A stretch of DNA of 61,057 nucleotides, the filler included, from Sphacelaria rigidula (taxonomy: Eukaryota): the NCBI GenBank assembly GCA_964200075.2. It is 5 parts of 5 records of this genome, joined end to end, with 100 filler letters (N's around TTAATTAATTAA, not from the genome) between each part and the next. Parts side by side here need not be neighbours in the genome. Positions count along the whole stretch, not along the records: positions 1 to 12,134 come from CAXNAA020004090.1; 4 more parts are not named here. One strand, 5' to 3'. Numbering within the stretch: the stretch's first letter is position 1; each line of letters starts with the position of its first letter. A program made the position numbers and the translations under genes. The notes beneath the pieces are model-generated. The model was given only the letters and a program-made list of their open reading frames with translations, ran no database searches and had not been told where the DNA came from. Of the stretch, positions 1 through 61,057 are shown in pieces.

Positions 1-588
1 CTCATTGCGGGCGGCCGCGTCGCTCCGACGAACATGCCCACACACCCCCGCACGCCCCCCCCCCCCCCCCCTAAACCAGCCCAAAAGTGTCACGAAAACA
101 AAGGTCATACAGCGCCTCATGTTTGGGTTCAGACTACATGAACCGCCTCATGTGGGCGACATTAGCGAGAACGAACCCAAGCGTGGGAATTCCCGGCTGC
201 TCGTGGTGCTCGGCTTTTTCCAATCCGATTTAGGTGAAGATTTTGCTTCCCCAAACCAAGCACTTTTTTCGGGGGGGGGGGGGACATCGTAGAAAGTGTC
301 TAATATAGGATAAACAGCATTTCCAGGTTACGATGCAATTCTGGATCTGCGGTCTCGGACAGTGACCGAAATATATATATTTGTACAACTTCGAAAAACG
401 TAGCTCGCGAACAAACCTACTATTGGATTACCAGCAGGTTAGCCGGATGCCTCAAAACGTACGTGATGCATCCGACGGCATTGTCAAGTTATATCGACGA
501 GCGCATCTGTTCCGTTTGCGTATAGCTACTCAAGCACTCGGCACTCGGACCTGATTCGAATACATTAAAGTAAAAAACATGTCAAAAA

Positions 589-905
589 CATTCCAAGGGT
601 CGAGACGAGTTTTTTTATTCGTTTAAAGCATACGTACGTGCGTATTGTGTAATCGATCCGTGCCGCACGAATCAATAAATCCTTGGGCTTTGTTTTCAGC
701 GTTGCACCCTAGGTACGCGCACCCCCAGATGGGCACGTCGACCGTAATATTGCAATGTTTGCGTACTGTCGAGACCTTTCTGACCCACGGTCAAGTTACT
801 CCTCTCTTTCGAGCGACCAAGTCTCCGAAGTCGTAGATGTGGTGATTCGAACCAGCGATGTTTTGTCCTGCCCTTGGAACATAACACAGAAAGTCGGCAT
901 CTCGC
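589..905 (+). repeat. Old dispersed repeat, homologous to about 44440-44730
   Basis: Collinear shared blocks ATTCCAAGGGTCG, ACGAATCAAT, GCTTTGTTTTCAGCGTTGCA, CTCTCTTTCGA, GTGATTCGAA and GTCGGCAT on two different scaffolds. Confidence 0.7.
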
Positions 906-1210
906 TCGGGGAGCATTGCGAACTAACTCCTCGGTAGTTGTCTCTGACTCGTCACCATGTTAGTGGTGCCTTGTGTGATGACTATCTCGTGGTATATGTA
1001 GTTGACACGCGATGGTCAATGCAGACGGATGCGAGCCCTGATATCGCCAGTAATCGCAGCTGCCAAGTATCTTCGTGATTTTACACACATCGCCATTAGC
1101 TCTACTGTGTCGTCTACTATACAGAATACATACGCTAACGTCATGGAGTACCATATGCGTCAGTTCCTTTCCCCCCCCCTCCCCCCCCCTCCTGTTTAAC
1201 AAACCTTCTA

Positions 1211-1488
1211 TGAGCAATGCTACGGTAGGGATTGCACTTTTCGTTTCCGGGTCTCTTTTTTGTAGAAGCCCAAATATATGGGGCTTACTCTGCGACCCAA
1301 ATCTCCGGGAATCGAACTCCCATAAACATGGTGTTTGCACGCAGGGGCCTTGTCGTGAATCGGCAATTTTTTCAATCTTTTTCAAGTAAAAATGATGCTG
1401 ATTCTCGAAATGGTCCGCCCAACACCCCGAGCAGCCCCGAGAAAAGGTTTCGCTAAAAAAAGTGCAATCCCTACCGTAGCATTGCCCC
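1211..1488. mobile_element. MITE with 28-bp perfect terminal inverted repeats, TA-flanked
   Basis: GCAATGCTACGGTAGGGATTGCACTTTT at 1214-1241 and its exact reverse complement at 1458-1485. TA at 1209-1210 and 1489-1490. No ORF inside. Confidence 0.85.
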
Positions 1489-2239
1489 TATACATATTTT
1501 ACACTTTGGGTGAAGAACTCCACAGCGGCAGAATGAAGGCATCCGCGGGGGTGGTCGAACGCACCCAGATTTTTTGTTGTTGTTGTAAAACTGATCTTCT
1601 TCTACACCTTTTCTATGGGATGTGCGGAGGTAGGTCTCTAGGCAACTCCGAACAAAACTCGTTCGCCTTGTTTGTTGTTTCTACTCACCACATTAGTTCG
1701 ATTTTTCCGAGTCGCGGTCAACTCGTAGCAATCTCTCTAAAGCGGTGTGCATCTTCACTCCGACTGCAGCGGCATACTTTCAAGACCTGAGCCAATTTCA
1801 GTGTAGGTCTGACTACGTCTGGTACCGTACTTGGATCGAGACTACCCACGCGAATTCGAGCTCGTGTAAATTTGGTGGTTGCACAATTGTTTCAGATGAG
1901 GACTACTACACCCCCTGCTACTGCATACGTTGTTCATTCTGTGCATGTGTTGCAACTCATGGATTGCATCCTCTTTCTCGCATATCACTCTTGGTATCAT
2001 GGTTGTCATGCGAATTCGTTTCCTCATGTTGGGGCGGGGAGTATTCATCTCGTCAACTATTCCGAACGCACAGTACAATATAAGATCCGCAGGCCAAATA
2101 TAGAAACGGTCGTGCACCCTACACAGAACCTGTTCCACGCAGTACAGACCAAAGGCACCAACAACCGTGCGCAAGAAATACATCATCCTGCTCTATCCTT
2201 CGTGTAGAATATCCCGACACTCTTCTGCCCATATCTCAC

Positions 2240-2531
2240 CGTCTTTAAAAATGGGCACGTGACACTTAGGACACCTCTTCGTGGACGATCCCATGTCCAC
2301 CGAAGCGTTCCTCGTACCCTTCCTCGCACCGTTCCTCACACCGCTCCTGTCACCGTTTCTCGCGCCGTTCCTTGCGCCGCTCCCTGTGCTGCTTCTCTGG
2401 TTCCCAGGGGCGCCGCCTTCAGCACCGCGCCCATCCTCCTCCACCTCATCTCCAGTTTCCCTGTTACAGTCAGGATCGCTATCGTTGTGGTTCTCACCGC
2501 CTTGCCAACCCGACGCGCTGGACGCACGAAC
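2240..2531 (-). CDS. Parkin-like RBR E3 ligase, exon with low-complexity linker and start of RING2 (gene partial)
   Basis: Acceptor taaagcag|GTT and donor GACG|gtgaga. Translation VRASSASGW...SSTKRCPKCHVPIFKDG resembles Parkin TTKPCPRCHVPVEKNG. Phase 0 matches the preceding exon. Confidence 0.85.
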
Positions 2532-3170
2532 CTGCTTTATTAATATTTTGGGATTCCGATTCCGAACTTTTCTTTTTTGTCGGGAGGACGGGGGGCATGG
2601 TTTCGAGCCTGTACATCATCTCTGCCGTGGAATCAAATCGGTTATTACGCATCGTCCCCCTAGAGACGCACTTTCAGCAGACCTGAGCGCGTCGTGTGGA
2701 GAGTGTATGTTGATTTGTGCTAACTGATGCGAAATTAAGAGAGACGACGGGAAAAACACACAACCGAATGTGTCAATTGCACGAAGACCATCGTAGTCTA
2801 AGATACGCTCCCCCGCGTGCTTCTGTACGCACTTCGCACAGAAGTTCCGTCTTGCGTCTTGCTCGAACACAAAAAAAGTAAGAGCGCATGTTTTTTGCTC
2901 CCAATAATCACGAAAGTTGTATCATTCGTTCGCGATTCAGGGAACTCCTTCTTCACCGTAAAAAAAAATAACACGTTTCATTTGCTTCTCTTCTTGCAGG
3001 CATCCATCCTACAACCCAAAATTTGGGACGACATGATCTCATGTTCTTCGACATACGCATGCTCAACATGACGCGCACACGGGAAGGAGAAGCCAACCGC
3101 ACGTCTGCGATTCTAACCCTAAGTCCGATGGCTTGTGGAAAGAACGACGGCCTCGGAATGAACGACCTAC

Positions 3171-3614
3171 CCCGTAGCAGCTCTCATCAGATCCGTGGGA
3201 GTGGCGACATACAGTGCACAAGGACGTACGGCACCCCGGGCACTCGATGTGGTATCCGTCGACGCTCTGTGATCCCGACGAATGTTCGACCCCTTCGTTT
3301 TCGGTTTTCCACCACGTCCAAGTCGAGATACGGGCAAGAGCCCGGTTTCTCGCTGCCGGGTTATCCTGGGTGCCGGATCGCGCGCCGGATCCAACAGCGC
3401 CGGATTCCGTGATGCCAGATCCAGATCCAGATCCAGATCCAGATCCAGATCCAGATCCAGACCCGTGTGCTTGTTGTTCCTGTTGTTGGACTTTTGCGGC
3501 ATCAGGGGCCACGCCACAGTGGCAGTTGGGGCACCAGATGATGCGCATGTCGGACGCGAGGTGTATGGCGCAGAACCGACGATACTTGACCATTTGCCTC
3601 GGCCCTAAGATTGC
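3171..3614 (-). CDS. Parkin-like RBR E3 ligase, IBR-domain exon
   Basis: Pyrimidine-rich acceptor cccattcccctcacag|GCA and donor GGG|gtaggt. 148 codons AILGPRQMVKYRRFCAIHLASDMRIIWCPNCHCG...IECPGCRTSLCTVCRHSHGSDESCYG show IBR Cys/His spacing. Confidence 0.88.
3415..3462. repeat. (CCAGAT)n hexanucleotide repeat encoding a Gly-Ser run in the IBR exon
   Basis: Seven perfect CCAGAT units plus CCAGAC. Reads GSGSGS on the minus strand. Confidence 0.95.
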
Positions 3615-4031
3615 CTGTGAGGGGAATGGGGAGGTTGAGGTTGTGGGGACGAAGAAACACAGTCGAAGAAGACGCCCGGGAGTGTCCGGTGAGATGAGCT
3701 GCCTGTGATCTCTTGACCAGTGAGCGATGATTGTCGTTACAGAGATACACCCACATGTATGTCGCTGTATAGGCACGGCGAGAGCTTCAGCACTACTCAC
3801 TGCTTGATGTGGATTTGTTCAGTGATCTCGTACGTGACCGTGCCTTCCTGTACTAGATGCACTGTTGTGAGCTATGACGTAGATCTACGCAAATTTTGTT
3901 CGTCGAGTGCGTACGGGAACGAGAGCGCGACCCGACAGCCATATCGTTGGCATGGGTAGAAGCTCGCACTAACTGCATCGCGATTCCCTTGGGTCGCCAG
4001 TCCAATCCTCTGCCGGGCAAATTACACGCAC

Positions 4032-4181
4032 CTCGAAGCAAACAGGGTCGATGAAGCTGTCTGCGCAGCCCATTGGACACCCCACGGTGTAACCATCAAA
4101 ATCGTGAGATGTCACGAGCCTGCAGTCGTTGACCCGGCTCTCGACGTAGACCTCGAAACAATTTAGACACATCACGTGAGA
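4032..4181 (-). CDS. Parkin-like RBR E3 ligase, exon with C-terminal part of RING1
   Basis: Acceptor cgcaacag|TCT and donor GAG|gtgcgt. SHVMCLNCFEVYVESRVNDCRLVTSHDFDGYTVGCPMGCADSFIDPVCFE resembles Parkin [42 protein letters not shown]. Confidence 0.88.
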
Positions 4182-5319
4182 CTGTTGCGGACTTTCACCA
4201 ACAGCCTCTCTGACGAATCACACGGGGACATGCGTGAAAAGCAGCGAGGTTGGCATCGGATCAGAACATAGGGTGGATCAGCGGTAAACTTGAGTGTAGG
4301 ACGGGGTAGCTGTCATGTCATGCATGCGAGTACCAGTTCTGCTCGATGATGCACAGTAAGAGGGTATTAGCTTGGTATTAGCTCGTTAATAAAGTGGACC
4401 GACGCAGAGTACCCGTAACTATGCCGATGCCGAACACCAACCTTATTCCCGTCCTAACCTCTACTGCCATCCCCAACCCCAACACCGGCCCGGGAAGTAT
4501 GCCTCCAGCACGACGTGAAACATTCTCGTTGGCTATAAAACCGAAATCCGCGTCGCGATGGAGGGCTTTGAGAGATGTATGATCAGTACGTAGCCGCCCT
4601 CCTGTCTTGTCCTCGGCAGACTGCAGGAAAGGTTATTGCTGCCGGAGAGCATCAAAATGCAACAACCTTCTCGGAAGTTTTACCGAGATTAGGTCACGAG
4701 GTTTCAACTTTGCCGTTCTTATTGCGAGTACTCTTCGTTTATAACGCTCGACCGGTTGCAACGGTATCGGCTAAATTTACCCAACATCAAGGGATCGGTA
4801 TCCCTACGTGTCATAATCCACCCGGCGAGAGATGATGAACGATACGTTCACGCTGAAGTGTCGCACACGACGTAGCACCCTTCGAAAACCGATTAAATAA
4901 TTTAACTCGCCCTCCCCAGTATGATAGACTACTTTTGAATATATATATATATATATATATGCTCCCCTGCATCTTTAGACTGCGACACTCTGGCGTCCAT
5001 CTCACCTGCTGGAGTTTTCACCAAAATTTCCGTCGTCTATCCTGGCGGAAATTTTTGTCAACCGCCGCTCCTGTAGAGAGGAATACGACGAGTATAGCCA
5101 GATGCACTTGAGGCGTTTTCCAGACCGTTGGTCAGCCGGCTTGCGTAGTTGAAATGGGAGTTATCTTGTACGGCGGTGCCGGGCCTGTCTGTACGCTTTG
5201 GGGGGGGGTCAGCTTCGGGCAAGACAGCAGTACTTGCGGGATTTGCGTCTGAAATCAGCAGTATCTTTAATCCAATACCTGATATTAACCCCGATTTTCT
5301 TCCGTGACACTTCTAGCCT

Positions 5320-5450
5320 CTTCCCTTCCTCGGGACGAGTCCATGGTCTCAACGGACCTACCTATCTCTCCCCCGGCACATGCCGTGCATCTTGTTATCG
5401 TGGATTGGATCATGATCAGCACTGCGTGACCGCGTCGACTGCCGTCAACA
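5320..5450 (-). repeat. Partial copy of SINE-like family B (see 40838-41130)
   Basis: 27-bp identity CCCTTCCTCGGGACGAGTCCATGGTCT with 40849-40875, then diverged collinear similarity (TCTCCCCGG, GGATTGG, TCAGCACT, ACCGCGTC). Confidence 0.7.
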
Positions 5451-5481
5451 CTTGTGCTCTCCTTACCCCCTCAGGCTTCAA

Positions 5482-5545
5482 CTCCGTCTCGAAAGGGATG
5501 CGTGGTCAACGGTCAAACGACTAAGGCAAGCCACAAATGAGTACG
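5482..5545 (+). mobile_element. 64-bp poly-C-associated element, copy A
   Basis: CTCCGTCTCGAAAGGG...AAATGAGTACG flanked by the near-duplication CCCCCTCAGGCTTCAA / CCCCCCTTCATGCTTCAA. Confidence 0.9.
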
Positions 5546-7279
5546 CCCCCCTTCATGCTTCAACGACGAAAAGCGAATACTACTTAGAAAAAAGACGTAT
5601 AGACTTCGTTCCATCTGCTGGGAATCGATATCCCCACGGTCGTGTTCGGTAGGGTATATCGGCTGAAGGTCGAGTATTTACATATATAAAAAAGGGGGTA
5701 TTTTACCGAAAATCTAGAAGCATTGCTTTCCAACGACGAAGCATCACAATCTTCGGCCTGTTTCCTGATCGGAGTGCTAAATTTGTGTGTGTGCGGGTGT
5801 GAAAATCTTAAACTTTTGTTTTCGACCTTCCCGGGCAGCAAACATAGACTCGAGGAGCAAAAAGAGAAGAATTTGGGGACACAAATGACGTGGAGCTGTC
5901 AGACGAGATCTTAGCAGTTCTGCCGCTCAATTTTCGTCGCCAAAACCTTGACAAGGCACGCCCTGATAATGATGCTCGTATGTCGAGGAGGATTGCAAAT
6001 CATGACTCTGTTATCGTTACCTCACCCTGACCTGGGCCCCAATGCTCCCCATGCCAACGTACGTATCGAGTACAAGGCGGAAAACTTCTCCACGCGATCA
6101 AGCGCCAATCGCCTTGCGCGCGGTAGTACAACAAACGATCTAGAACCGACAGAGGGCGTGTTTTGCTCTGGTAAGACTGGGAGAACGATTCGCCTAGCGG
6201 CGGCCGAAATCCAGCCGGCAACTATCCAATGTCGTAGTGGGGCGTTTATGTAAGTTTAGCTGGTAAATTTGGAGGACTTACAGGCTGCTTTTACTATCAT
6301 TGTTGTTTTCGCCCCATTAGCTCCATCTCTCGAACCCGTGGTCACGCAGCTGTATCGCGGTTTTTGGCAGTCGACGCAGCAACGGCTAGCCTTTGACCCG
6401 CATAGGGGTCTAAATGGGGGGGATGGCATAAGGGAATGGCGGCAATTGGTTCTTCGTGTGGAGTAACGACAAAAAATGTCTTCCTGGAAGCGAAACAACG
6501 CAGAGGAAACGAAGGAGGAGAAGAAATAGTAGGAAAATAAGTAATAGAAACATCAACTGAAAGTGGGAACTATATAGAGCATGTATCTGTATGGGAGATC
6601 ACATAAGTCTTCAGGACGGTGGCGGTTCCCCAGATACTATAGGTGATGGTAAATGAATTGGTCAATGGCCGAAAGCGCCAGGATATAGGCAGAGGTCTAT
6701 ATCAAGGGCGACGCGCATCACGACGTGGAATGTACATATATCAGTTGGGTACGTTTCCTCGTCGTGAATCCCATGTTGACTCTGCAATGGCGTCGCATAC
6801 TTTGGTACTGAATAAAGATTCCTAATGTACAGGAGGAGTACAATGTGTCGCTATATGATGGTTAGATACACCAATAGAGAAGTCTATGCGTAGAAGGTGG
6901 TGATGTCACACCACTGTGTGATCGCAGGTATACATACTAGCGCACATGAAAGCTGCATGCATGCAGAGCTTGCGGTTGCTGTCTCAATCTTCGGAACGTT
7001 AGCTGATGATAATTCTTTGAGTTTTTCATGGTTTTTCATGGCATGTGCGTCAAAACATGAACATGCGGCATGCACCTGTCGTCAATTGCCTCTCCTCGCG
7101 ACGCTCTGTGATCGGCAACCAGTCATATCCTCTGATCGGCTATCTCAGCCATGTCCATCAAACTTCAACGTTGGGCTACAAACACATGAACAAGCAAAGC
7201 ATTTATCCCACCGACTTTTACATAGCGGGTTTGGAACCACTTCCTCGATTCTCCCCTGCATCATCGCTTCGACTCACAG

Positions 7280-9604
7280 TCACGCCGCTCACCCATATAC
7301 AGCGTTTCTCTCGTGTGTCCTCTGAGCTCTTTGAGTGCGAACTCACAAGGTCGAAAAGGCTATGTCTGTTTCGAAACTTTTTTCGTGCTGGCTTCCTGTA
7401 GTTCGGGGACATTGTCGTGATTTCTTGAACGGAAACATCGCGCGATATATCTTTGTCTTGCAAAACGACATACCCACGGTACTTCATGAACGTCGTTCCA
7501 CGTAATGACCCCCTTCCTTAGCTTGGAGTGCCTTTCCATGGTGAACACGACTTGACTTTGACGAGATCTGCGCATTTCTGCAATGAAGGTCTTAACGCAG
7601 AGCCGGTAAACCTCTTCGGGCCCCACCCTCATAAGCGGCGAAGAGAGCGCTGTTACTGGCTGGTCGTTAGTGCAGAAAATGATGCACACAATCAAAGTCA
7701 ACCACGCACGCTCAAGAGTTGCAGAAAAAGACGTGCGGTTCATGCGTACCCCACCGGTCACAACAAGTACTACAGCAGTACAGTACAGTAATAGTCGAGC
7801 ACAGCACTGCACAGCGCTGCACAGCACCGCACCCCACAGTAGTGTACTATGCCCCATCTATGTCTAACCACGTCAAACACAGACGCGACTGCCAGCTCGA
7901 AGTCAGAGCAGCATCGGCGGGCGTTCGGGGTTGATCGCTGACCACCCAGTATATTCGTATACAGTACAGTATATATATATGCGGAGAAATGTGCCAGCAT
8001 CATCCACATTTACATCAATTTGTGTGCAGTAGTGCTCGCGGCTCTGTGCCCCGGATCACGTTGCAGCCAGCCATGGCTGGAGGGGATAAGTAGGAATGGC
8101 GGCTTCTGCCATCACTGCGTATCGCAGTCCTCACGTACTTTCGGTTCACCTGATCTCCCAGCTGCTCGTTGTGTTGGTAAATCGGATGGGTTGGCTTTTA
8201 GTTATGTCCACGGAGGGGGCTGGTATAGGGGCTCTCTTGTATAGTTTGCGTCTATTCTAAATCCAAATGATAAATGCTCGCGCAACATAATCAAGCCTTC
8301 TTCTAACTACAATCAGATGAAATATACCCGGGAGGGCCCAGGTCGTCTAAAAACTATCTCGGTGTCCTGTGTACCTCTTTGCAATTACTTGATCGAAGAA
8401 TAGGATTTGTTCTCGCCCCGACACGCTTTTCCTGTATGAACAAAAACACAATGCCCGTTTTTGGTCGCGGGTTCCTTCATCGCGCAACCCTCTGCTGATA
8501 TCATTCGTTCCACACCACCGGAAATTTAACCAATACGTCGTCAACACTACATTCATGTAAGACTGTATCACGCCCTGGGATCCAAAAGGGTGACGGGCCT
8601 GAATAATCTCGCAGCCTACTCGCCTCGCATCTGAAGCTGACGTTGATGCCCTCCACATGAGAAAGGCAGGCCAAGCAATTCTCGTCCTTGGAGCTCTTAT
8701 GAAATCCAGGTAACTTGAGCAGAAGATCATCGTCTCGATTTTTGCCCGATCCTGTTTCATTTCCACTTGCTAGCCCAGCATCTTCAACTTCAGCTTCACT
8801 CTCGCGTGGAGATGCGTATTCAGACGTGGTTCTTCTTGTGCTCTGGTGGGACGACAGATCGCCACTGTTGGTGCGGTGGTCTCCCCCAGCGCCGATGGTA
8901 TCCTGGTGTAAGATTGTTATGTACGTGAAGTACTCATCCACCCAAGAAGTCTTCGTTCAAAGTACCACCATGCAGCTGGCGTCCAATTCAATGAGAGTTC
9001 CCATCAACTTACAACCTCTGTCCACCTGGAATCACGGGGAGCATGGCTCACCGACCTGTGCGAGATTGCTAGTAATAGGTCACTGCAGACTATCTTGAGA
9101 AGTCTTGATATGCGAACGTACTGGCGACACGCTGAATTGGCCTTACATGTAGCACTATCGAGCAACGATTATCGTACAACACACGTCGACCGCTCCTGGT
9201 AGTGCACTGCACAGGTGCATCTTCATTCCGGTCAACCCTTTCCAGTAGGAATTGAGGCCTCTTACCTTGCTGTGACCTTTGCCTGGCCGTCTCCCTTTCA
9301 CCGATCCGCGTCCCTGACTCCCACCTTCATGAGGCCTTTTGATACCGCGGTTTTGATGTTCAACGCTTCCAGCCTCTGCCGCCGCCAGAACTGCCGCGTG
9401 TCGTCCAGCAGATACTGCAGCAGCAGACTTGGCTGCAATGCTAACGCTGCCACGCCTGGTCTTTGATGATTGGCCAAATTTCATGGGCGAGTGTTCGCAG
9501 AATCCATACTCGACCCCACAATCGGGGCACAGAGGTAATCCCGAGCGTGTGCGCTGTACCCAGCTGCTCGAAGCACCGCCTCCAGATTTCGACTGCGTGG
9601 ACAT
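7280..9604 (-). pseudogene. Decayed multi-exon coding remnant of unknown family, possibly TE-encoded
   Basis: Open first exon 9604-9266 (MSTQSKSGGG...CPDCGVEYGFCEH...GKGHSK|gtaag). Further exon-like segments near 9055-8500 and 7660-7280 have splice signals but contain stops or frame changes. Confidence 0.35.
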
Positions 9605-12134
9605 GCCTAATACGGCAGATCGGCAGCTTTTTCGTACGAACTTGACCTTCACTGCCACCCCAGTGTCGTTCCGTCCAGATGAATAAGATGCAATCGATAG
9701 TGGCAGTATGCGCTTGAAATAGAGTGCATAATTCAGCATAGGCTATGCCGTGGGCATTCAATCGGCACCTCCCTGCTGCTCTATTGGTGCAGTTTCACAT
9801 CATCTGTCAAGGATATCAGTATCATGTACGGCACAACACAGATCCGCCGCATTGTTGACCCTACTTGCCCCGCCTATTATGAGGTCATTAGAATGATAGC
9901 ATCGTAAAATATAGATCATTTTGTCCTCATCGTGAGATATCACCCCCTACATTATGCCCGATCTCGACTTTCACTGTAGAGAAGATTTATTTACCATAGA
10001 TAAAGTCAAATCCATTAACCCCTAAAAATTTTGTCCTAATAAAGAAGTATTGACTTCATCGCCAAGCTTAAACTCGAGGAAATCGAGACAAAAAAGTCTG
10101 TCGCGAAGGGGTGTTATACACCGTAGTCTAGGGACACGCGGCCCCATCTCGGCCAAACGGAGCGTAAGCGGGTGAGAGCTGTGGTGTGGGTATACCGGGA
10201 CGGGCGACGGTCGACTTCACGCTGAGGTTCTGAAGATTTTTTCAGGTGAAGCTCGTTGTCTCTGCTGTAGCTGTGGTTGGAGGGTATATTTTGCCGTGCA
10301 CTTTACTGGCGAGAGGTGTTTTCGGAGGGTGGTAGGTGTGGTTGAGGTGTCTGGGGTGGGTCTTGTGCCTCGTATGAAGTTGTTGGCTAGGTTTGTTGCC
10401 GGATAGTTCCTTCACGATGTGCGCAGTGCTGGATGCTTATGCTCTGTATGGCAGACGGTAACTTCGGGTCTGGGAAGCTGCACTGTCCGTTCCCGACCGT
10501 CGAAAACGAAGTTCCTGCCTTGCGCTTTGTCCTAACGATCTCGCTCTCGGTACAGACGCGACAGGAAGTAGTACTCTCACCTCACAGGCAACAGCTTGCT
10601 AGACAGGCAATAGACAAAAGTGAGTGCAGTCTGTCAGATGAAGTAGTCTTCTGTGATGATCTCACCCCACAAGCACGTACAGGAGTTGAAGACCAACCAA
10701 GCAGTCAGCTGTGCGGTGCGTTTACACTGTATCTGCACCCATCTGCGGTACTGTGAGCGCTATCACTGCCCGAGCTTCATCTGGCCACTTGAACCGCGGG
10801 TAGAACTTTCCAGAAGTAATACTGTACAGCCAGCTCGAAGTGCGTGGACACGTCCAAAGACACAACTCAACGAGAGACCCAGCCGTCAGTATGATAGGGT
10901 AGTTCAGCGGTACACAACCATTGTCTGTGTTGTCTGTGTGTACTCTGTGCGGCGTGACCGCGTAAGAAGAGATGGGCGTTGTCCCCTCTTCGGTTCCGCA
11001 TATGTATACCGCCTGCAGCGTTGTACGGTGAAATTGAACATGCGGGTTCACACAGAGCCAGAACAACATCGTGCATGCACCGACACAACAGCATGTCAGT
11101 ACCGTACAGACAGTACTGGAACCCGCTACCTCGGTACGCACACTGTCGTGTCGTGTACAGGTCACGGCCCATACAACCTTGGTCTCTTTTGTCCGCCCAA
11201 CCACTTGGGTGTAGCCCTCTACGCTCCAGGGCTGTTGACGCTGATCCGCAATGGTATGGCCCACTGTCTGGGATGCGGAGTGCAACATCGGACCCCACAA
11301 CGATGATATAGCATTTCAGTATTTGAAGTGGAAGTCGTAAAATATTCACTAGAGGAATGACACGTCCGGCCCTGTTCCTCACTAGCATCGTCGAACGCAG
11401 GGGGATTCCCGTGTGCACATGGGAATAAAGGAAATCGGTCCTCGCTGAGAGGTTGGATGTTTGCTTGCCTTCTACTGCTGTAATCAATTCTAGTGCCTCT
11501 CGGCACAAAGTACGTGGCGTGTTCCTTTGGCTACGAGAGGGCTCAGATGCGAATACATGAACACTGCTATTTTGGAGCCAGAATAATCATGACACGATCC
11601 GTCCATGTCCGTGAAAAAAATATCGTCGGGTCGAATGCACAGATATTGGTGTCCGAACAGCCCGCTGTCGCTGTTCGTGGTCGTTTTTTACGTCCATGCT
11701 CGGTCCGCTGTATCCAAACTTGCGATGGGATCGCACCACAACCTTGTGTACACGTGACTACCCTTAGATGCGGTCATCCTCCGGGCTAAAAGAAGGCACT
11801 CTAGTCCTTGTGTCCTTGGGGGCAGGGGTTGGTTGCCCCACCTTGAGCATGTTTCGATGATGCACTGCACAGGATTAAGGACACATACAGTACGGGCAGA
11901 GCAGTAAGCGTGTGGTACTGTACCCCTAGTTGACGCATTTCATCTCGTGCTTTTTGCAAGCATGTCCGTTTGTGTCCATTTTGCACGTATCATGATCCTG
12001 CATTTCATTGATCCGCGATTACTCTGCTGGTGTTGTGTACTCCTTCACAATTTCGTGTATATCGGAATATTCCATACGTCGGACGAGCACGAGTGTCACT
12101 CGTGGCACTCGTGCTCGTTGGGCTGCTCGTTGGC

Positions 12135-12234: not shown

Positions 12235-13237
12235 CATTGCTGCTGCTGATCCAATGACAAGAAACCATGGCATCATGTGCCAATAATACAGCACGGGACC
12301 GGCGGCTGGCAAGCGATGAACGAGACGGGGGAGTCGGCATCGGAAAGCGTCCGGGCACTGCCGGTCTCCCCTCATCCACCTCCCCTCCTCCCAGGTTTCA
12401 AGAGTTCTGTCCTGTGCCGAGCACATGAGCGAACCTTGAAGGTTCACCATCCCCTTCGGATCCCTCAAGCCACACGCGGTGCTCCGTCTTCTCACGGACG
12501 CGTGGAGGGCCGTTTGAACAACAAAACAATTCAATCAAAAGTGCTTTCTTCCGCTCGCTGCTTGTTCGTTCCGTCTCGTTCATGCCACAGGTTTGCACTT
12601 GCGCGCTTGCTTCCACCACGCCGGGCATTTCCAGTGTCATGCGCCAAAGCAACCAACAAGGATCTCCCGATAATGACCCATACTATCCACTCCTTTCCAA
12701 GTCCATCGTGTTGCTCCGTCGTCCATAAATCGCATCTACCTTATCCCCCCACGAACCGTCCTCCACGCGATGTGTTCCACTGTCATACGCCAGAGCCATA
12801 CACTAGCGTCTTGCAATGACATCGATTGCCTCATCTGCTTCACCCCTTGCCAAATGAATCTTGCTGTGGAATGTCACCAACAAATAGCATCGCCTTCGTC
12901 CCCTCCCGCGAGGCCAATCTCGCGCCCCATGGCCAAGGTCGGCAGCGGTCGGGCCATTGTCCAAACGTCACGCAGCGCCCCTGTGAGTGCGTCTAGCCTC
13001 CCAACACCGCGGCGTTGCATACTTACTTGACACGCAAAACAAGAGCGGGTATGTATCGAATTCTACTTGATTGTTCAAGAACAAAAATATTTCCCGCGCT
13101 ACTGTACGATGGTTGAATAAAATACCTTCGACGTATACCAAGGATGCAGAACATACCGGCTTCGATCGCGACACTGAAACTCACGCTCACGTGCACAACT
13201 TCTCAAGCATCAGGGTGAGGGAGGGGAGGGGGGGGGG

Positions 13238-13301
13238 CGTACTCATTTGTTGCTTGCCTTAGTCGTGTGACTATTGACCACGCATCCCTTTCGAGACGGA
13301 G
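13238..13301 (-). mobile_element. 64-bp poly-C-associated element, copy B
   Basis: Reverse complement of copy A with few changes. Flanked by CAGGGTGAGGG(G-run) on the left and CAGGTGAGGG(G-run) on the right. Confidence 0.9.
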
Positions 13302-13418
13302 CAGGTGAGGGGGGGGGGAAAGGGGATTTCCCACGACCCTTATGGATAACACACAAGAGTTCTCTGGCCGGCGTAAGCAGGGTCATAAGTGCGATGAAGT
13401 CAACGCTAGATATCTCAC

Positions 13419-13503
13419 CTTGAGCGCGAACTTCTGCTTGGTCTCCTTGTGCGTTACTACGCGCACAGTGCCAAACCCGCCCTTTCCGAGCAGCTCGCCA
13501 GAC
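13419..13503 (-). CDS. Ser/Thr protein kinase (CDPK/CaMK-like), exon 3, subdomains I-II. Gene continues off the scaffold
   Basis: Acceptor cccccgcag|G and donor AAG|gtgaga. SGELLGKGGFGTVRVVTHKETKQKFALK has the Gly-rich loop and catalytic Lys. Phase matches exon 2. Confidence 0.92.
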
Positions 13504-13626
13504 CTGCGGGGGTGAAGCGGTTCAAGGACCGGTTCGGGTCGACCAGATATGCCCACCAACACCATTCGGAGTAGAAAAATAACATCAGGAAAACAAAATA
13601 AGTGGAACAGGGTGAATAGAGAACGC

Positions 13627-13763
13627 GGGGGAGGGGGGGGGGGAGAACGTGCCGGCGTTTGTGGTCGGAAGCAGGAGTGGAGACAATGAAAGGAGTGTAA
13701 GGATNNNNNNNNNNAAAAAAAAAAAAAAAAAGAAAAAAAAAGAAAAAGAGGAAAAAAAAGAAA

Positions 13764-13800
<37 letters not shown>

Positions 13801-13875
13801 GGGGGGGGGGGGAGAACGTGCCATCATTTGTGGTCGGAAGCAGTAGTTGAGACAATGAAAGTACTTGCAGGGTTA
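13627..13875. repeat. Two diverged ~65-bp direct copies around A/G homopolymers and a 10-N gap
   Basis: GGGAGAACGTGCC...TTTGTGGTCGGAAGCAG...GAGACAATGAAAG occurs near 13640 and near 13810. Gap at 13705-13714. Confidence 0.75.
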
Positions 13876-14920
13876 CCGCCAATGCAAGCTTTGACCCATA
13901 AACTAACACGCAGATATTTCTATCTGTGTACTTTGGCATCAGCTTTGTTGGCACTTAAAAAAAATACATGTCGTCATTAACATAGCATCGCATCCATTGG
14001 GCCAAGAGATGCCGGGAGACCTACGGACAGGACACCAACACCAACAATACCGTCATGTTTCGAATGCGTCGACTGGATCGAGATTGGTGACGTGCGCTCT
14101 ACGCCTTCACCCCGGTGTGTGCGTGGTGATCAAGAATCATAAATGAAAAACGTTTATGTGCCATCTTTTTCGGGAGGAGGGGGCGCGCGTTCAGGAGGAA
14201 AGGTCTGAGAACAGGTTTGCGGAGCTCTTCACGAGAGTAAGAAGGAGCGGCGGCTTCATTTTTTTTCAAACCATTTTTGAACATACGAGAAAAAGTCCAA
14301 CAAAATGTCTTGTTTTTTTTTTCTTCATATTTTCCATCCATCTTATTTCTCATAATAACGGGTGAAGGCGTCATGCCGATATATGTCACTGTGACCACGC
14401 ATATTTACATATCTGAACCAATGCGGTAGGAATGCCGTTACAACATTGCGCTGGGCTACAAAAATCCATAAAATCGTACCACATGCTTACCCAAAAAGCA
14501 GCAGCATGAAACACGCCATACATTGCACGACAGGGCAGCAAGGGGTAACTCTCGTAACAAATAATACTGACACAGGGCAAATTTCTGCGCTGGTCATTCC
14601 GATAGAACTCGATATATGAAACCGCGTTCATCACCATTTGACGCGACTCGGGCCATGAAATTCTCCTATTTTCAATAGTAATTTCCCACACCGCCGATTG
14701 ATGGGATGCCGAAACACGTATAGGATCGATTATTCTCACGTGAGTGAAAACTATACCAGCCGTAAAATGCACCGAGAAGCATCTCCTGCCCGGCGCGGAT
14801 TAAATACTGTACTTGTATCGTTATGATTTCGATAAAGAGCGTTGAGTGGGCCATGCCGTTCAGTCGTACGCACCAGACAGACGGCACTCTAGAAGAGCCC
14901 GCCATTCCATGTCAAAAAGT

Positions 14921-15180
14921 CATATGCCAACAGCAGTGGAGAGCGGCTGCGTCGTGGGTACACAAAATTCGACTTCACGGTCGACAAGGGGAGGGGACTG
15001 CTGAACCCCTCTCGCGAGGAAAAATAAGTCAAGAACCGCACAAGGGAGGTGGAGTACTAAAACAAAACAAAACGAACACTCTTGTGTTGACCTTCCTTCT
15101 CTGTGACCCCGGCTGATGCGCCAACATATACCGAAAGGTGTAGACTGGCGTTTAAAATAGATGGGATGACAACACAACAC
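14921..15180 (+). mobile_element. 5'-truncated copy of tRNA-derived SINE family A
   Basis: Collinear with 47210-47495 (AGTGGAGAGCG, TTCGACTTC, GCTGAACCC, TGTGTTGACCTTCCT, CCCCGGCTGATGCG, CCGAAA.GTGTAGA, ATGGG). Ends in an ACAAC-repeat tail. Confidence 0.8.
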
Positions 15181-15558
15181 CCCCCAAACATGACAACTTC
15201 ACGTCACAGACTTTCTCCACATGCATGGGGTCCCACTAATCCAAGCAACAGAACCACTGAACCACGATATTCGCATTACACCACATCATCTACTTTTTTT
15301 CTCAGGTACGTCTGTCATGAGACCACGGCTGGACCTCTGGGGGGTAAGTTAAAATGTGACGATCAATCATCTACGCAGCGGCTGGGCCGCGTTGAAGGCA
15401 CAGACCCGACGTGGAGCACACCGTCCTCGCCCGCACTCTTTGTATATACACGTCATGCTCCACAAAAACCGGACCGTTAACTACAAGTCACCCAGCCAGG
15501 AATCAAATGCCGATGGTGTCAGAGCAGTTCAAAAATATCCAGTCGAGGCGAGAATGAT

Positions 15559-15780
15559 CCCGATAACTTGCCCCCGACGCATGACGGCCACGGTCCACTC
15601 AATGCCCCGACAAGCCTCGAATCGCCCCTGCACGTACTGGCATCCAACCCTTCCTCCCACCCCATCCGCCCCGATAACTTGCCCCCGACGCATGACGGCC
15701 ACGGTCCACTCAATGCCCCGACAAGCCTCGAATTGCCCCTGCCCTTACTGGCATCCAACCCTTCCTCCCACCCCATCCGC
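15559..15780. repeat. 111-bp tandem duplication (2 copies)
   Basis: CCCGATAACTTGCCCCCGACGCATG...CCCATCCGC is repeated at 15559 and 15670 with only a few substitutions. Confidence 0.95.
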
Positions 15781-16375
15781 GACACGCACGCTACTCTGGG
15801 CGGGATGTTTCAGAATCATCCATGATCTCATCACACATGGCGAGAACAATACGTATGAGCACAACCACCGTAGCACAGCACAGCCGAGTAAAGCTGAGCA
15901 GAAGACGAACATGGACAGCACACCACATACGGCCTGCATTGCGATTGCAGTAGCTACAATAGTTGGTAATCATTGTTCCACCACGGAAACAAGACCGTTC
16001 ACTCTTCTTTGGATCTAGCAGCCATTTTTGGAGCTTCTACTCTTTTGAATAAACTATTCCGATTCCAAATGAACGGGATCTGTCAGATCCACAGCGCAGA
16101 AAATGTATATCGCCTTCTCAGAGAAGTAACAGCTCAGTCGGGACATTTAGGTCACGCCCATCGTCTGCCCTACAAGCGCCAAATAAGAGGATCCAAAGGA
16201 TTGAGGGAGTGACTTCAATAATGGCCAACGATGAAGATCCAGTTGTACTTGTGCGTCAGGTTTCGGGTGTGGTTGCACCAAAAAAAATTTAAAGGGTGTT
16301 GCTCTCTCGATGTTATAAAAACCGCTCCGAAGTATGCACTTTGCTTCTATTTCTGTATTGGGCATCTGACTCTGA

Positions 16376-16563
16376 GGCCGTGTCTCATCAAATTGTTTTC
16401 GTCTCGAAGACGTGCGGTCGAATCGAACTCGCTCATTTCTGATTCGTCGACGCTATTTACTTTCTCACATGGTTGACAACATGAATGCCGGGGGCGTATC
16501 AAGTACGAGCAAATTCGATTCCATCGTACTTTTTCGAGTCGAAAACAAGTTGATAAGACGGCC
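16376..16563. mobile_element. Tourist/PIF-Harbinger-like MITE
   Basis: Imperfect TIRs GGCCGTGTCTCATCAAATTGTTTTCG / CGAAAACAAGTTGATAAGACGGCC. TGA on both sides (3-bp TSD). Confidence 0.75.
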
Positions 16564-18629: not shown

Positions 18630-18676
18630 CTGAGGTCGTACACATCCTGGATGTCGCGGTTGAACTCTTCTCGTAC
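18630..18676 (-). CDS. Protein kinase exon 2
   Basis: Acceptor ttcttgtgcgctgcag|GTA and donor CTCAG|gtgtgc. VREEFNRDIQDVYDLR; the phase-2 end joins exon 3 exactly. Confidence 0.88.
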
Positions 18677-24054: not shown

Positions 24055-24368
24055 GAGACCATTGAACTCGCAGCTCTACACAGCCGGGACGAAGGACGCC
24101 GGGTTTTCGCCGGACCAGGCTCGCAATCAATCACCAAGAGTGAAGCGCCGTAATGTGGTCAGCGAGTCGCATGAAGGGTGAGCTGCATCCTACTAAGATT
24201 GTTAGACCCGAAGCGTACTCAGAGGACCATTGACCTCGCATCCCGTGTGTCTTGATTGCACCACTCGGCACCGAGAACAAACCCCACCCACGTCCCGGTT
24301 AGACACCCATGAGGCAGTGTAAAAGCCGTGGCTGTCTCTGGAAGTGGCGATACCACAGAACAAAGCAA
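24055..24368. repeat. Interspersed repeat family C: a plus-strand partial copy (about 24055-24220) and a minus-strand end cut by the scaffold (24301-24368)
   Basis: Shares GCCGGGTT.TCGCCGG.CCAGGCTCG and GCGAGTCGCATGAAGGGTGA.CTGCATCCT.CTAAGATTGTT with 35935-36196 and 36420-36600. 24301-24368 is the reverse complement of about 36127-36196. Confidence 0.85.
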
Positions 24369-29300: not shown

Positions 29301-31750
29301 CTTTCCGATCCACGTACGTCATTTCCGCCTGCCGCAACACACACCACAGGCAGCATCCTACCGTGGGCGACGACTGATAACAACCTCGACTCCTCCATCA
29401 GCCAGCCATCCCCCTTTACCCCTCTGCCCTCTTTTTGGTACACTACCCAGGGCGACAACAACCCCCAACTTCCTCGCTGCCCCTTCCTGAGCGGATTCCG
29501 CCTGCCGAGGGGCATACCGTACGTGATACACGGTGTGCCCCACGCAGGCCAAAAGCAAATCCGAAGCTCGACCTCCGTTACATGTACATTCTCCTCGTTT
29601 TCCGCCCGCCCTTTCTATCTCTGTATATCACCAAGGCGACAAGAAATCATCATGTCGACATTCCACTCAGGCAATCCTTTCCTCTCCCCCCGCCCTGACT
29701 CTCCGTCTTGAAAGGGGTGGGTGGTGAATGGTCAACGAGTAAGGCAAGCAACAAGTAAGTACGCCCCTCGCCCCGACTCCAACGCGTACGCGACCAGGGC
29801 GCTAACAAATATCAAGTTCGACTCCCCCAACAGGCCAGCCCTCCCCCCTAGGCCCTGCGGCCTTCTCCGATGCAAATTTCGCCAGCCACGAGGTATGCAA
29901 TATCTGGTATACGGAGTATACCATCCAGGGCAACAACAATTCCCAAGCTCGGCTTCCTCGAAAAATAAGCTCTCCACCCTTTGCGCCTACACTAACACGC
30001 ATGTATCACCCAGGGCAACAACACCTCCCGAGCTGGATTCCTCCACAAGCGGCGTCTTCCTTCCCGACCTCCCGGCCACAGAGGATTTCACAAGTTTTAC
30101 ACGAAGTGTCCGACTCAGGTCGACAACAAACCTTCAACACGACTCCCTGCACACGCAAGCTCTGCTCCATCCCCGCCGCCACTCCCACACATATACCACC
30201 CAGGCCGACAACAGATGTTAAGCTCGTTCTTCTCCACAAGCACGCCCCTACCCCGTCGCCTCTATCCCCTCGTGATGGCCACCAGGGCCACGTCGAACCC
30301 TACGTTTGACGTCCTCAACGAATCACGCCTCTCCATCAGGCCCTTCGACCCAATTTCCCGCAAATTTCGCCCGCCACAAGGCACACGATAGGGACAAGAT
30401 TTTCAGTCACACAAAACCGAGATACACCCAGAGCAACAAATGTGTGCGAGCTCGGCGTTCTCCCCAAGCAAGCCCTCACCCTCCTGCTCCCAGTGCTTCC
30501 ACAGCAACTTTGCCTGCCACAAGGTTTACCATAGGCGACATATGTTGTATATTACCCAGGGCGAAACGAATTCCCTCAGTCGACCGCGTTTTCACAAGCA
30601 AGCCCTTCGCCCCCGCCCCCCTCCCCTGCTTCTACGCAAATTCTACCCATCACGAAATACACCATACATGACAGACGTACTGTAGAATATCATCCAGGCG
30701 TAAACATTCGCCAAGCCCAGCTCCCTCGACCTGCAAAGCCTCATCCTTCTGCCCCCCGCACCTACACGGCAATTCTGCCTGCAACAAGGCTTCCCATAGA
30801 TGGTATGTGTTCTACAACACCCCTGGCGAATCGAACTCCCCACCTCGACACTCTCCACAAGCAAGTAGGTCGCCCCCCCGTCTTCTTTCCCTGCTCCTAC
30901 GCACATTACGCCCGCCACAAGGCAGACCATACATGACAGACGTATTCAAGTATATCACAAAGGGCGTAAACATTCCCCGACCCCAACTTCCTTCACATGC
31001 AAAGCCTCATCCTCTTGCTCCCCGCACCTACAAGTTGATCCCCCTTGAGACGAGACGTACCATAGGTAACATGTGCAGTGTACCACCCAGGGAAAAACGA
31101 CTCCCCTACCTCGGCCCCATCTGCACAAGCAAGCCCTTCCACCACCTTGCCTCCCGTCCCTCTCCATGCGAATTCCGCCTTTGACGAGACACACATTAGA
31201 TGGTAGATGCAATATATCACCCAGGGCGAAAACATTCCCCAAGCTCGACTTTCCTCGCAAGGACATTACTGTGCCCCACTCCCCGCTCCCATTTGCTAGT
31301 TCCGCCTGTCATGAGGTGTACCATAGGTGGTATACGGAATATACCATTCAGAATGACAACAAACCCCAGCTTTGACCCCGCTCTCCGCAAGCAATTCCTT
31401 CGCCCCTGTCGTCTATCATCTCCTACTTAGTCTCTGTCTGCCGCAAGGCATATAACGGAAAGGAAATCACAAGGTCGGCTTCCTCCACAAGTCGGTCCTT
31501 CCGCCCCCCTGCCCGCCTCTTCTATCCGAGTTTTGCCTGCCACGAGGTATACCGTGGTCAACATACGTAGTACATCACCCACGGTGAAACAATTTTTCAA
31601 GCTTGACTCTCTCTGCACGCAGGCCGTTCGCTCGCGCCCGCTCCTCCTCTTCCTCCTCTACCCTAATCCTGCCTGCAACGACGCCTACGATGGTCATCCA
31701 GGGCTACAAAAAAACTCTCAAGTTCGATCCACTGTACAAGCAAATTGCTT
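26380..31750. repeat. C-rich degenerate tandem array: about five ~620-650-bp higher-order units followed by diverged ~130-bp monomers
   Basis: Marker TGAGCGG...CCGCCTGCCGAGGGGCAT recurs near 26957, 27603, 28222, 28844 and 29488. The sub-motif CCAGGGC...AAAT/AAC...CTCGAC...CAAGCAAGCCC recurs about every 130 bp from about 30550 to 31350. Confidence 0.9.
29701..29763 (+). mobile_element. 64-bp poly-C-associated element, copy C (diverged, 63 bp)
   Basis: CTCCGTCTTGAAAGGGG...AAGTACG flanked by CCCCCCGCCCTGACT / CCCCTCGCCCCGACT. Confidence 0.85.
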
Positions 31751-35127: not shown

Positions 35128-35934
35128 CGTCGATACAAGAGGCCCCCCTACCTGGTGCGAGTCAAATGAAGCTTCATCTAAACGAGAAAAAATGCGCCAG
35201 ATACACATATCTTGTTCAACTACGACAAAGGTAAACAAGATGCCTAGGACGAGCTATTAAAGCTATTAAGCTTTTCATATCAACCATGGCGAACCCCCGG
35301 ATTTTTAAGGTAACCCGAGTGACCAGTGCTCCAGGGTCCGCAGGGTGTCGACCCGTATCTTACTGATCTGTAACCACTCACGATAAAGAACAGAAATGAT
35401 CAACCGACGAATCAGTACATGTCCAGGTCGATCACCTCACGCATGAATCACAGACACACAACCCTGAATAACAAACAATGATTGAAGAAATAAAATGAGA
35501 ATAAAAACATATCAAGCGAAATAAATCACCTGTCGACACTCGCGGAGCCTCCTGCCGTTCTTGGTTCCGACCTCTCTCTCCTCAGTTTCTTTCCCCTCTC
35601 CACCCAACTCACCACTCCGTTTCCTACAAACACGATTTTTTGGTGAACCACAAGGGCGAAGGCGGCGGAGACGGCGGGGAAGTGCAACAAGACAGATACA
35701 GTACAAGGGGAAAAGGAGAAGGAAGGGAAATAGTAACGCTCAGCAATTGAAAAGAAAGGAGGATAAAAGCCATAAGCTCATTCATCTAAGCGGTTGAAAA
35801 TGAGAAAAGGAATTACGAGACGAGAAAAGCAACGTAGCTAGAAAAGCCGGTTCATTTGTGTGTGTATGGTGGGCGGGCGCGGGCGGGGGGGGGAGGGGGG
35901 GGGGGTACTCATGATCATGCTTACTATAGGCATA

Positions 35935-36196
35935 TGATAATTGACCTCGCGTCCCTACAAAGCCGGGACGGAGCACGCCGGGTTCTCGCCGGGCCAGGCT
36001 CGGACTTCATCACCAAGCGCCGTGGTGTGTTTGGCGAGTCGCATGAAGGGTGAACTGCATCCTGCTAAGATTGTTCGGCCTGAAGCCTACTGATCATCTT
36101 GAATTTGGACGACGGCCTACAATGAGTTGCTTTATTTTTGTGGTATCGCCACTTCTAGAGACAGCCACGGCTTATAAACTGCCTCATCGGTGTCTC
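35935..36196 (+). repeat. Interspersed repeat family C, longest copy
   Basis: Similar to 24055-24220, 36420-36600 and, inverted, 24301-24368. Confidence 0.85.
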
Positions 36197-40803: not shown

Positions 40804-40837
40804 TACTCAGTCTTTTCTTTCCTTTTTCCCTCACACT

Positions 40838-48929: not shown

Positions 48930-48985
48930 CGAAAGGGATGCGTGGTCAATGGTCAAACGACTAAGGCAAGCAAAAAATGAGTACG
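48930..48985 (+). mobile_element. 64-bp poly-C-associated element, copy D (cut by scaffold start)
   Basis: CGAAAGGGATGCGTGGTCAATGGTCAAACGACTAAGGCAAGC...GAGTACG followed by a C-run. Confidence 0.9.
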
Positions 48986-49222
48986 CCCCCCCCCACCTCG
49001 GTCCCCGACACTTTCCTCGCGCCCCCCCAACCTTCACGGCGCAAAGCCCCCAAAAACTCGACCCCGGCTGTGCCTCCCTTGCCAACCATGGCCGAAACCA
49101 CGGCTGCACCCCCTTCCTTAGTGGTGATATTAAGAACACCACCACAACGCCCACCAAGCTAATCGACGCAGGAGTACACGTTAACGTTCCGCCCGAGAAT
49201 ACACCACCTGGTAGGCTCGTCC

Positions 49223-59687: not shown

Positions 59688-60988
59688 ATGCCGACACCAG
59701 CGCAGACGCCGACACCTACGCCAACGCGGACACCTTCGCCGACGCTCACATGGGCATCAAACACTCCCTCGTCGCCCGCACTGTCACCCTCTTCCACGGG
59801 TCCCTCGCAAGACGGCGGGGGGGCGACGACGCTCCTCAACGCCCGAGGACCGAGCAACGGCGTCCTGCGTGGGCCGATGAGTTGCCAATACCAAGGGAGG
59901 GGCGTACGAGGCGGAACGCTGGTGGCTAGCGGGGCGGAGGAGAGCCGAATGGAAGCGGAGATGGCGCTGGCAGGAATGGCCGACGACAAATGCTCAACCG
60001 TGGAGATGATCACCGCGGCAGCAGGACAGGTGGCAGGACAAAACGCAATCGCCTCGACCCAACTCGAGTTAGCCGAAAACGAGTTTTTTTGTTTTGTTGC
60101 TGACGGAAACAGAGTAGGGCCGCCTGAATTCAGTTTGCGCTCACCGGTTGGCCTACATGTAAGCGAAATAGAGGCAGCACCCACGAGTATGGATGACATA
60201 GCAAAATCAGAGTTTCGAGAGGCATGGCTAGGCGTGATGCAGGCTGAACTAGGGGGTCATGAAAAGGCTGGAACATTTTCGACTGGCCCTGTACCGGAAG
60301 GAGTAGACGTGATTTCAGCGAAGTGGATCTTGAGTTGGAAAATTGACGCAGATGGTACTATAACGAAGGCAAAGGTAAGGTTGGTATCATGGCAGTGGCA
60401 GTTGAGGAAGAGTGGCCGCTGTATCATTTCGACGTGACACAGGCTTTGGTTCAAGCAGAGGTGGACACTGATGCGTACATGAGGCTGCCTGAAGGTTGCT
60501 ACGTTTTGACAGACACGACCGTGAAGCTGAAAAAATCTATTTCCGGGATCAAGCAAGCGGGCAGGCAGTGGTCTCGTCTTCTGTGCCAAACATTACTCGA
60601 GGATATCGGGATGGTGCAGTGTGAGGCTAACCCTTGTGTTATCAGGATGGAAGATGCAGGAGACGTGCATGTGGTTTTAGTTGTCCACGTGTACGACATT
60701 CTTATCAGTGATTCTGAGGAAAACGTGGGAAAGGTGGGCAGAAACCTGAACAAAACGTTCCCACCGAATAATTTCGGAGAGACCACATGGTACATGGGGT
60801 GTGCAGTGGATAGAGACTGGGATAGAGGCACGTTGTCTGTGACGCAAACCACGTTCACGGCCACGCTCCTGAAGCGTTTTGAGGTGAGGGGGTACTCGGA
60901 AATCCCCGTCTCTGTTTCTGAAACGTTGGGGCCGACAACGGGTAAAGTCGCAGGGGTAAATCGCCCATACCGTAACGCAGTGGGGGGG

Positions 60989-61052
60989 CGTACTCATTTG
61001 TTGCTTGCCTTAGTCGTTTGACCATTGACCACGTATCCCTTTCGAGACGGAG
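60989..61052 (-). mobile_element. 64-bp poly-C-associated element, copy E, inserted into the Copia RT
   Basis: Interrupts YRNAVGG at its G-run (CGCAGTGGGGGGG). The right flank CACAG resembles the left flank CGCAG, a partial TSD cut by the window end. Confidence 0.9.
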
Positions 61053-61057
61053 CACAG

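Follow-up and report, generated by a model that had tools for sequence, protein, structure and literature searches.

L1 inserts by target-primed reverse transcription at TTTT/AA, ends in a poly-A tail, generates duplications of ~15 nt and is truncated at the 5' end, with microhomology at the junction. SINEs such as the eel UnaSINE1 use a different arrangement: a 3' tail, recognised by the RT and shared with a "stringent" partner LINE (UnaL2 in this case), combined with a head that holds a pol III promoter.

RTE-type LINEs are described, in a lepidopteran study, as having a single ORF for APE and RT, an extremely short UTR made of a simple repeat, and many partial copies that consist of the 3' end only (PMC2887409). 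Such 3' fragments, which comprise the end of the RT coding region and the short UTR between flanking duplications, are stated there to be common and to have been mistaken for SINEs (PMC2887409). For Ectocarpus, the main text of a survey of transposable elements reports RTE-X, RTE and CRE LINEs (PMC12477816).

The subject of this report is a 64-nt repeat unit from the alga Sphacelaria rigidula, originally noticed as an apparent ultra-short mobile element. It was analysed in a window, here meaning the whole stretch of 61,057 nt, which is made up of five scaffolds (spans 1–12134, 12235–24368, 24469–36600, 36701–48829 and 48930–61057) separated by spacers of the form N44-TTAATTAATTAA-N44. As in L1, the homopolymer tail of the unit merges with the homopolymer that starts the duplication, the duplications are ~15 nt long and the copies are 5'-truncated; unlike L1, the homopolymer is C and not A, the tail begins 5 nt past a stop codon and the point of truncation is nearly fixed. 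As in the UnaSINE1/UnaL2 pair, a short 3' module is common to the repeat and a LINE, and this tail is more conserved than the rest. Unlike that pair, the unit is the tail module only: the 3' tail held in common with a partner LINE, which defines such SINEs, is present, but the internal pol III promoter head is not.

The resemblance to lepidopteran RTEs lies in the single APE and RT ORF and in duplications of variable length, whereas the repeat is here a C homopolymer and the target a C-run, the lepidopteran paper reporting no site specificity (PMC2887409). The unit is also far shorter than the lepidopteran RTE fragments described there (PMC2887409), is sharply bounded (64–67 nt) and reaches an abundance of ~10^5. 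The Ectocarpus RTE-X and RTE families likewise have a stramenopile alga as host, and the survey lists RTEX-N1_Ec32, which is ~600 bp long, has an unrelated 5' part and occurs in ~6000 copies (PMC12477816), in contrast to the unit, which is without a foreign 5' part. In the main text of that survey, neither a C tail nor a C-run target nor a form of 64 nt is mentioned, and its supplementary family notes may already list the family or the short version of it (PMC12477816). A full-text literature search returned no description of a C-tailed LINE or of a C tail combined with C-run targeting. The process is ordinary; it is the C homopolymer as tail and target, the sharp 64–67-nt form and the copy number that are unusual.

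Results

Copies of the unit in the window

The preliminary description had placed five copies on four of the five scaffolds, and these were reproduced at the same coordinates by a mismatch search together with blastn-short (Table 1). With up to three mismatches allowed, the 64-nt consensus recovers copies A, B and E with 1–2 mismatches each and gives 0 matches in shuffled sequence (n = 100). Blastn-short adds copy C and, at 48930–48985(+), the unit part of copy D. The copies are separated from one another by 1–8 substitutions. Copy A differs from the other window copies at 5510 and 5532; a variant table derived from reads contains 5515, 5516 and 5518 and lacks 5510 and 5532, probably due to a filter that excludes bases near contig ends.

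The short fragment in Table 1 belongs to a stretch (24225–24260, minus strand) which, 3 bases past the match, has a GAGTACGC-like end, ..TGAGTACGC, without a C-run. An internally deleted copy and the tail of a related LINE are both possible readings of this stretch, and either assignment is uncertain.

Table 1. Positions of the unit copies, their flanking duplications and related tails along the window
Feature	Position	Strand	Remarks
Copy A, 64-nt unit	5482..5545	+	2 mismatches to the consensus; start coincides with the LINE position of CTCCG
Copy A, C6 tail/target run	5546..5551	+	end of the sequence common to read-derived contigs; longer C-runs in other copies
Copy A, upstream target-site duplication	5466..5481	+	C5 + 11 nt
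Copy A, downstream target-site duplication	5548..5563	+	16 nt, 2 mismatches
Copy B, 64-nt unit	13238..13301	-	TG upstream (13302-13303) also matches the LINE
Copy B, upstream duplication	13303..13318	-	C10 + TCACCT
Copy B, C10 tail and downstream duplication	13222..13237	-	16 nt, 1 mismatch
Copy C, older copy	29701..29763	+	87.5% identity, 1 base missing; within a degenerate tandem repeat
Copy C, upstream duplication	29686..29700	+	15 nt; C-run target present once in paralogous satellite units
Copy C, downstream duplication	29764..29778	+	15 nt, 2 mismatches
Copy D and C9 run	48930..48994	+	unit positions 9-64; copy cut by the scaffold start
Copy E	60982..61055	-	C7 run 60982-60988, 64-nt unit 60989-61052, 3 extra LINE-matching bases
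Fragment, 20 bp	24225..24244	-	95% identity to unit positions 14-33
Second, divergent tail family	35895..35975	-	TG + 68-nt unit (35906-35973) + C11

C-runs, target-site duplications and host sites

A run of 4–10 C lies directly 3' of the unit in five of five window copies, so that the claim of a 3' end always placed at a C-run holds without exception. Runs of at least six C or G number 61 in the window, compared to 24 under a random-order model (~2.5x). As C/G-runs occur only about once per kb, the adjoining of a C-run by all five copies is not a matter of chance.

Duplications were sought by comparing 25 nt upstream with 30 nt downstream in the three first-family copies that retain both flanks, which are A, B and C; the 5' flank of copy E is 5 bases only. 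The duplications so found (Table 1) each start with the C-run, and in A and C the match runs right up to the unit's 5' end. Their scores are reached by 0.2–0.4% of 3000 random site pairs and by 0.2–0.7% of 420 control sites matched for C-runs. In each case the upstream duplicate holds a run of C5–C10 that cannot be tail. The imperfect target duplications proposed for these copies are significant, therefore, and measure 15–16 nt. They are imperfect (1–2 mismatches per 15–16 nt) even in copies that are 97% identical to the consensus. In public reads, described below, the consensus of contig loose ends has, in four of four runs, a C-run 14–29 nt upstream of the unit and a long one that follows the unit directly.

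Two host sites were expected to be older repeats, a satellite and a Copia RT, and both were seen. The host of copy C is a degenerate tandem repeat with a period of ~620–646 bp, in which the copy-bearing unit is 714 bp long. Adjacent paralogous satellite units, when their sequences are compared by eye, have a single C-run target and no insert, and thus serve as a paralogous empty site for copy C. Copy E interrupts a Copia-type RT (RVT_2, E 8.7e-21, ORF 60347–61021).

The tandem repeat spans 26000–31900(+), has sub-periods of ~130 and 265 bp, and is strongly C-rich on the plus strand (GC skew -0.30 to -0.40). The Copia-type retrotransposon spans 54755–61021(+), with gag (Retrotran_gag_2), Pol_BBD and RVT_2 domains, and itself contains a tandem repeat of 395 bp x 2.9 at 56699–57863.

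The unit is the tail of a LINE

When a 24-mer of the unit was searched for among metagenome contigs, three marine ones matched (L001, L002 and L003). In each of them the unit forms the 3' end of a conserved sequence that is longer: upstream of the unit the contigs stay alike over 400 nt or more, with a column identity of 95%, and a C-run ends every one of these long copies. An ORF of 1253 aa at L001:694–4455(-) reads into the unit; its stop codon occupies unit positions 57–59 and is followed only by GTACG and then by the C-run. Read against this ORF, the unit is the last 18 complete codons and two bases of the preceding codon, the stop codon and the predicted 5-nt 3' UTR of an RTE-like LINE.

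The encoded protein (P0001) has, by Pfam, an Exo_endo_phos domain at residues 64–285 (E 3.1e-11), N-terminal to an RVT_1 domain at residues 634–883 (E 7.7e-33); Exo_endo_phos_2 also matches (E 9.2e-07). The RT aligns to L1 ORF2p and R2 chains in the PDB with E values of 1e-20 to 1e-22, in a search that cannot separate the clades. The element is most likely RTE-like, likened by its layout and not by phylogeny, with one long predicted APE and RT ORF that ends 5 nt before the C tail. Three homologues of the ORF, 1328–1360 aa in length, were found, one of them a named product of Ectocarpus sp. CCAP 1310/34, in which 17 of the 20 C-terminal residues are identical. A protein atlas search gave RT/APE clusters without informative taxa, and the 24-mer is absent from the viral contigs searched. 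A dinoflagellate was considered as host and rejected: the spliced-leader motif has 0 matches and the nearest named homologue is from Ectocarpus.

This outcome settles several points that had been raised on the sequence of the unit. The search for a long element that ends in the unit and encodes an RT plus an endonuclease was positive, and the element is a LINE of the APE type, which provides the non-LTR autonomous partner that had been postulated. The other partner envisaged, a Penelope-like element, is contradicted by the APE domain and by the absence of GIY-YIG among the Pfam matches. The unit is also not a separate gene for a tiny structured RNA; it is the LINE's own coding end, stop codon and 5-nt 3' UTR.

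The long LINE copies are known from marine metagenomes only, none of them from the window's organism, and their source is probably a species other than the window's alga. The metagenome scan gave long copies only, which would be unexpected if the samples contained that alga. There is no LINE body within the 61-kb window. In the public reads, the loose-end consensus directly upstream of 5482 ends in ..GAACGGTG, the LINE sequence upstream of the unit, in four of four runs, which indicates that longer copies are also present in the window's alga.

Abundance in public reads

Logan contigs from four public runs (three studies; the runs are labelled as one organism plus "algae metagenome") were placed on 4400–6600. 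The number of contigs placed was 26864, 21440, 11654 and 1475 across the four runs, nearly all of them on the unit. At 5516, the summed word depth reaches 12.0 M in run X1 against 61.3 in the flanks, 6.85 M in X3 against 20.9–37.7, and 2.52 M in X4 against 12.5–13.7, or a unit-to-flank depth of about 1.8–3.3x10^5 fold (~2x10^5). In X6, which is RNA only by guess, the ratio is about equal to that of the DNA runs, a result without bearing on expression. The very high copy number that five copies in 61 kb had suggested is thus borne out, with read depth at ~2x10^5 times single copy. As summed contig depth does not equal copy number and may be as much as about twofold too high where unitigs overlap, the copy number is put at the order of 10^5 only.

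Two further places have very high summed depth in all runs; in X1 this is ~3200x single copy at 5288–5361 and 560–1400x at 6250–6397. These are further high-copy short repeats.

The 5' end is narrow

The complete copies had been described as starting at one and the same base. Four window copies have an intact 5' end; placed on the LINE, they start at positions 3710, 3711, 3713 and 3713: A and C share their start base, B has two additional upstream bases that match the LINE (TG) and E has three (GTG). The start is therefore common to within 3 nt but spans four positions instead of a single base. The preliminary description had also set its element apart from ordinary truncated LINE tails, which would have heterogeneous 5' ends; the copies are indeed LINE tails, but within the window their 5' ends are not heterogeneous.

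The reads show the same concentration. Loose ends at 5482 number 318, 286, 237 and 69 contigs in the four runs, compared to 25–38 at neighbouring places, and those on the 3' side concentrate at 5549–5552. Because the reference copy at this place is short, true 5' ends and longer copies both contribute loose ends at 5482. A consensus agreement of ~0.45 leads us to the very rough inference that a quarter of these loose ends come from longer copies.

Head-to-tail joints, in which 5551 is followed by 5482, occur in 55, 43, 29 and 3 contigs of the four runs. In the best-supported joints, 0–7 letters (e.g. TG, CCTG or C), often ending in TG, lie between the 6-C run and the next unit. This spacing is smaller than the 15–16-nt duplications and would agree with template jumps off a genuine RNA 5' end, of which it is a weak indication.

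Tail conservation and RNA structure

Over the three homologues, the last 20 residues are identical at 56 of 60 positions, while the preceding 233–234 C-terminal residues are 65–82% identical. The window formed by these last 20 residues ranks 20th in conservation among 1234 sliding windows. The tail thus seems to be under an additional constraint, for which an RNA-level role in recognition by the RT would be the simplest account.

The two hairpins proposed earlier for the unit can be drawn, but their folding energy is no better than that of shuffles and the base changes in their favour are one-sided only. Fold energies compared with shuffles give z of -0.3 to -0.9 in most units, with one at -2.35 and one at +0.33; the decayed copy C has z = +1.15. 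In copy B and in L003, the second stem is kept, in each by a one-sided change. Within the unit, the places that vary in reads are positions 34, 35 and 37 only, which form the loop of the proposed second hairpin. Rfam gives no match in the whole window at gathering score; at E<=10, window positions 5400–5640 and L001 600–1100 give two chance-level snoRNA matches elsewhere and, at or beside unit position 1, no ribozyme model, be it HDV-like, hammerhead or twister.

Other C-tailed sequences and homopolymers

A second, divergent tail family is present once in the window (Table 1). Its 5' boundary motif is that of the main unit and its end motif is similar, but the middle differs. Its first hairpin is perfectly paired, at a place where the main family has two G-U pairs; the changes are one-sided and fit, but do not prove, the hairpin. 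No flanking duplication is detectable at this single copy, for which both flanks are present. A queue of ribosomes at the stop codon, considered as the cause of the 5' end, was rejected on this family, which shares the boundary and has its in-frame stops at a different distance (one decayed copy).

A third sequence has two copies, at 13633–13700(-) and 13801–13870(-), with ends of ..GGCACGTTCT followed by C11 and by C12(+C36), respectively. These copies flank a 10-N assembly gap, and the sequence represents either a further family of C-tailed retroposons or a gap edge that was duplicated. Runs of 20–49 G lie by 10-N gaps at 13764–13812, 31923–31942 and 32011–32064, one of them next to an A-rich run. 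Genuine long homopolymers at which the assembly breaks, or artefacts of two-colour sequencing, may account for them. As tails of the unit's element they were rejected, not being adjacent to the unit.

Discussion

The copies are very probably truncated tails of a LINE, formed through target-primed reverse transcription at C-runs. The initial description had already proposed this process, and the LINE, the C-runs and the duplications support it. In the mechanism we propose, the LINE machinery would nick a G-run, that is, a C-run on the element strand, and the nicked G end would pair with the C tail of the RNA and prime reverse transcription. This priming chemistry is modelled on L1 at TTTT/AA. 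A second, staggered nick ~15 nt away would produce the duplication that starts with the C-run, and each insertion would leave a new C-run as a potential new target. The short template could be cut or trimmed from LINE transcripts and, after copies had multiplied, also from read-through transcripts of earlier copies. The unit would then in effect be a promoter-less, mini non-autonomous retroposon.

For the template of the short copies, we see an even chance, or slightly better, that it is a discrete RNA of ~64–67 nt plus a C-tail, corresponding to the RT-recognised 3' module alone. Position 37 of the unit bears on this: it is C in five of five window copies and in ~91–94% of the depth in four runs, whereas it is T, within a Met codon, in three of three LINE-attached copies and in four of four LINE ORFs. 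Such a difference is unexpected if LINE RNA is the sole template, although the contrast is confounded by species, as the long copies are probably from another one.

Alternatively, copying of a full-length LINE RNA could stop 64–67 nt from the tail, so that the short copies are dead on arrival and never serve as templates; a strong stop from structure or from bound protein just upstream could be responsible. We consider this somewhat improbable, though it has to be taken seriously. Truncation with duplications is the usual fate of RTE-type LINEs, as in the lepidopteran study (PMC2887409). That a second LINE family has the boundary too would suit a property that belongs to the enzyme or to the RNA architecture, and the 0–3 nt that are ambiguous at the 5' junction resemble the microhomology at junctions of truncated LINEs. 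Furthermore, in the predicted fold of the LINE 3' region the boundary falls within a 6-bp hairpin, on its 3' arm, but this hairpin is weak (fold z -0.61). Full-length copies could, moreover, hardly be maintained by an enzyme that breaks off at 64 nt in nearly all cases, and the head-to-tail joints, with 6–8 C between units, fit a real RNA end better.

The discrete short RNA can be taken one step further. The unit would then be the smallest self-propagating retroposon yet seen, a 64–67-nt RNA that is purely an RT-recognition module. That an RNA cut, runaway amplification and array formation should all apply jointly is, in our estimate, unlikely. If it were true, a site-specific RNA cut, made by a new small ribozyme or by a nuclease stopped by a bound protein, would free the unit from any transcript that bears a copy; every insertion would plant a new C-run target and lead to a runaway to ~10^5 copies; and the head-to-tail arrays would have formed by template jumping.

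A SINE-like gene, in which a 64-nt RNA is made from its own internal promoter and mimics or borrows the LINE tail, would account for the discrete ends, the huge copy number and a 61-kb window free of any LINE body. It is nevertheless very improbable: every part of the unit is collinear with LINE coding sequence, with nothing added, and 64 nt leaves no space for a promoter head. On reading the unit sequence, no A or B box is present, and the earlier statement that a B-box is lacking stands. There is no tRNA-like part, ARAGORN giving 0 tRNA genes in the window, and no Rfam match to the unit at gathering score, with one chance-level match outside it.

We give almost no credence to a DNA-level element that favours C-runs, be it a MITE, another cut-and-paste element or a recombination product. 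Small size and flanking duplications would suit it, but terminal inverted repeats are absent on direct reading of both unit ends, which agrees with the initial claim that no long ones exist. The duplications of 15–16 nt vary in length and start with a homopolymer, the pattern of target-primed reverse transcription, and an RT/APE ORF has the unit as its 3' end. An artefact of the library, the adapters or the assembly, such as a linker beside poly-G/poly-C read ends, might be suspected from the long G-runs that adjoin assembly gaps in the window and from the two copies at the ends of scaffold 5, but it is refuted by copies that differ by 1–8 substitutions and have flanking duplications, by their presence in four runs from three studies, by the in-frame LINE coding sequence in three unrelated metagenome assemblies and by the distance of the G-runs, which do not adjoin the unit.

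What had appeared to be an ultra-short mobile element is explained as the tail of an RTE-like LINE. The 64–67-nt module shows stronger conservation than the remaining ORF and suggests itself as a candidate for the minimal RNA recognised by the RT. Its copies, of the order of 10^5, seed C homopolymers and short repeats across the algal genome; they are found in other elements and probably also in introns. This amplification bears on assembly, on gene annotation and on the evolution of genome size in the group.
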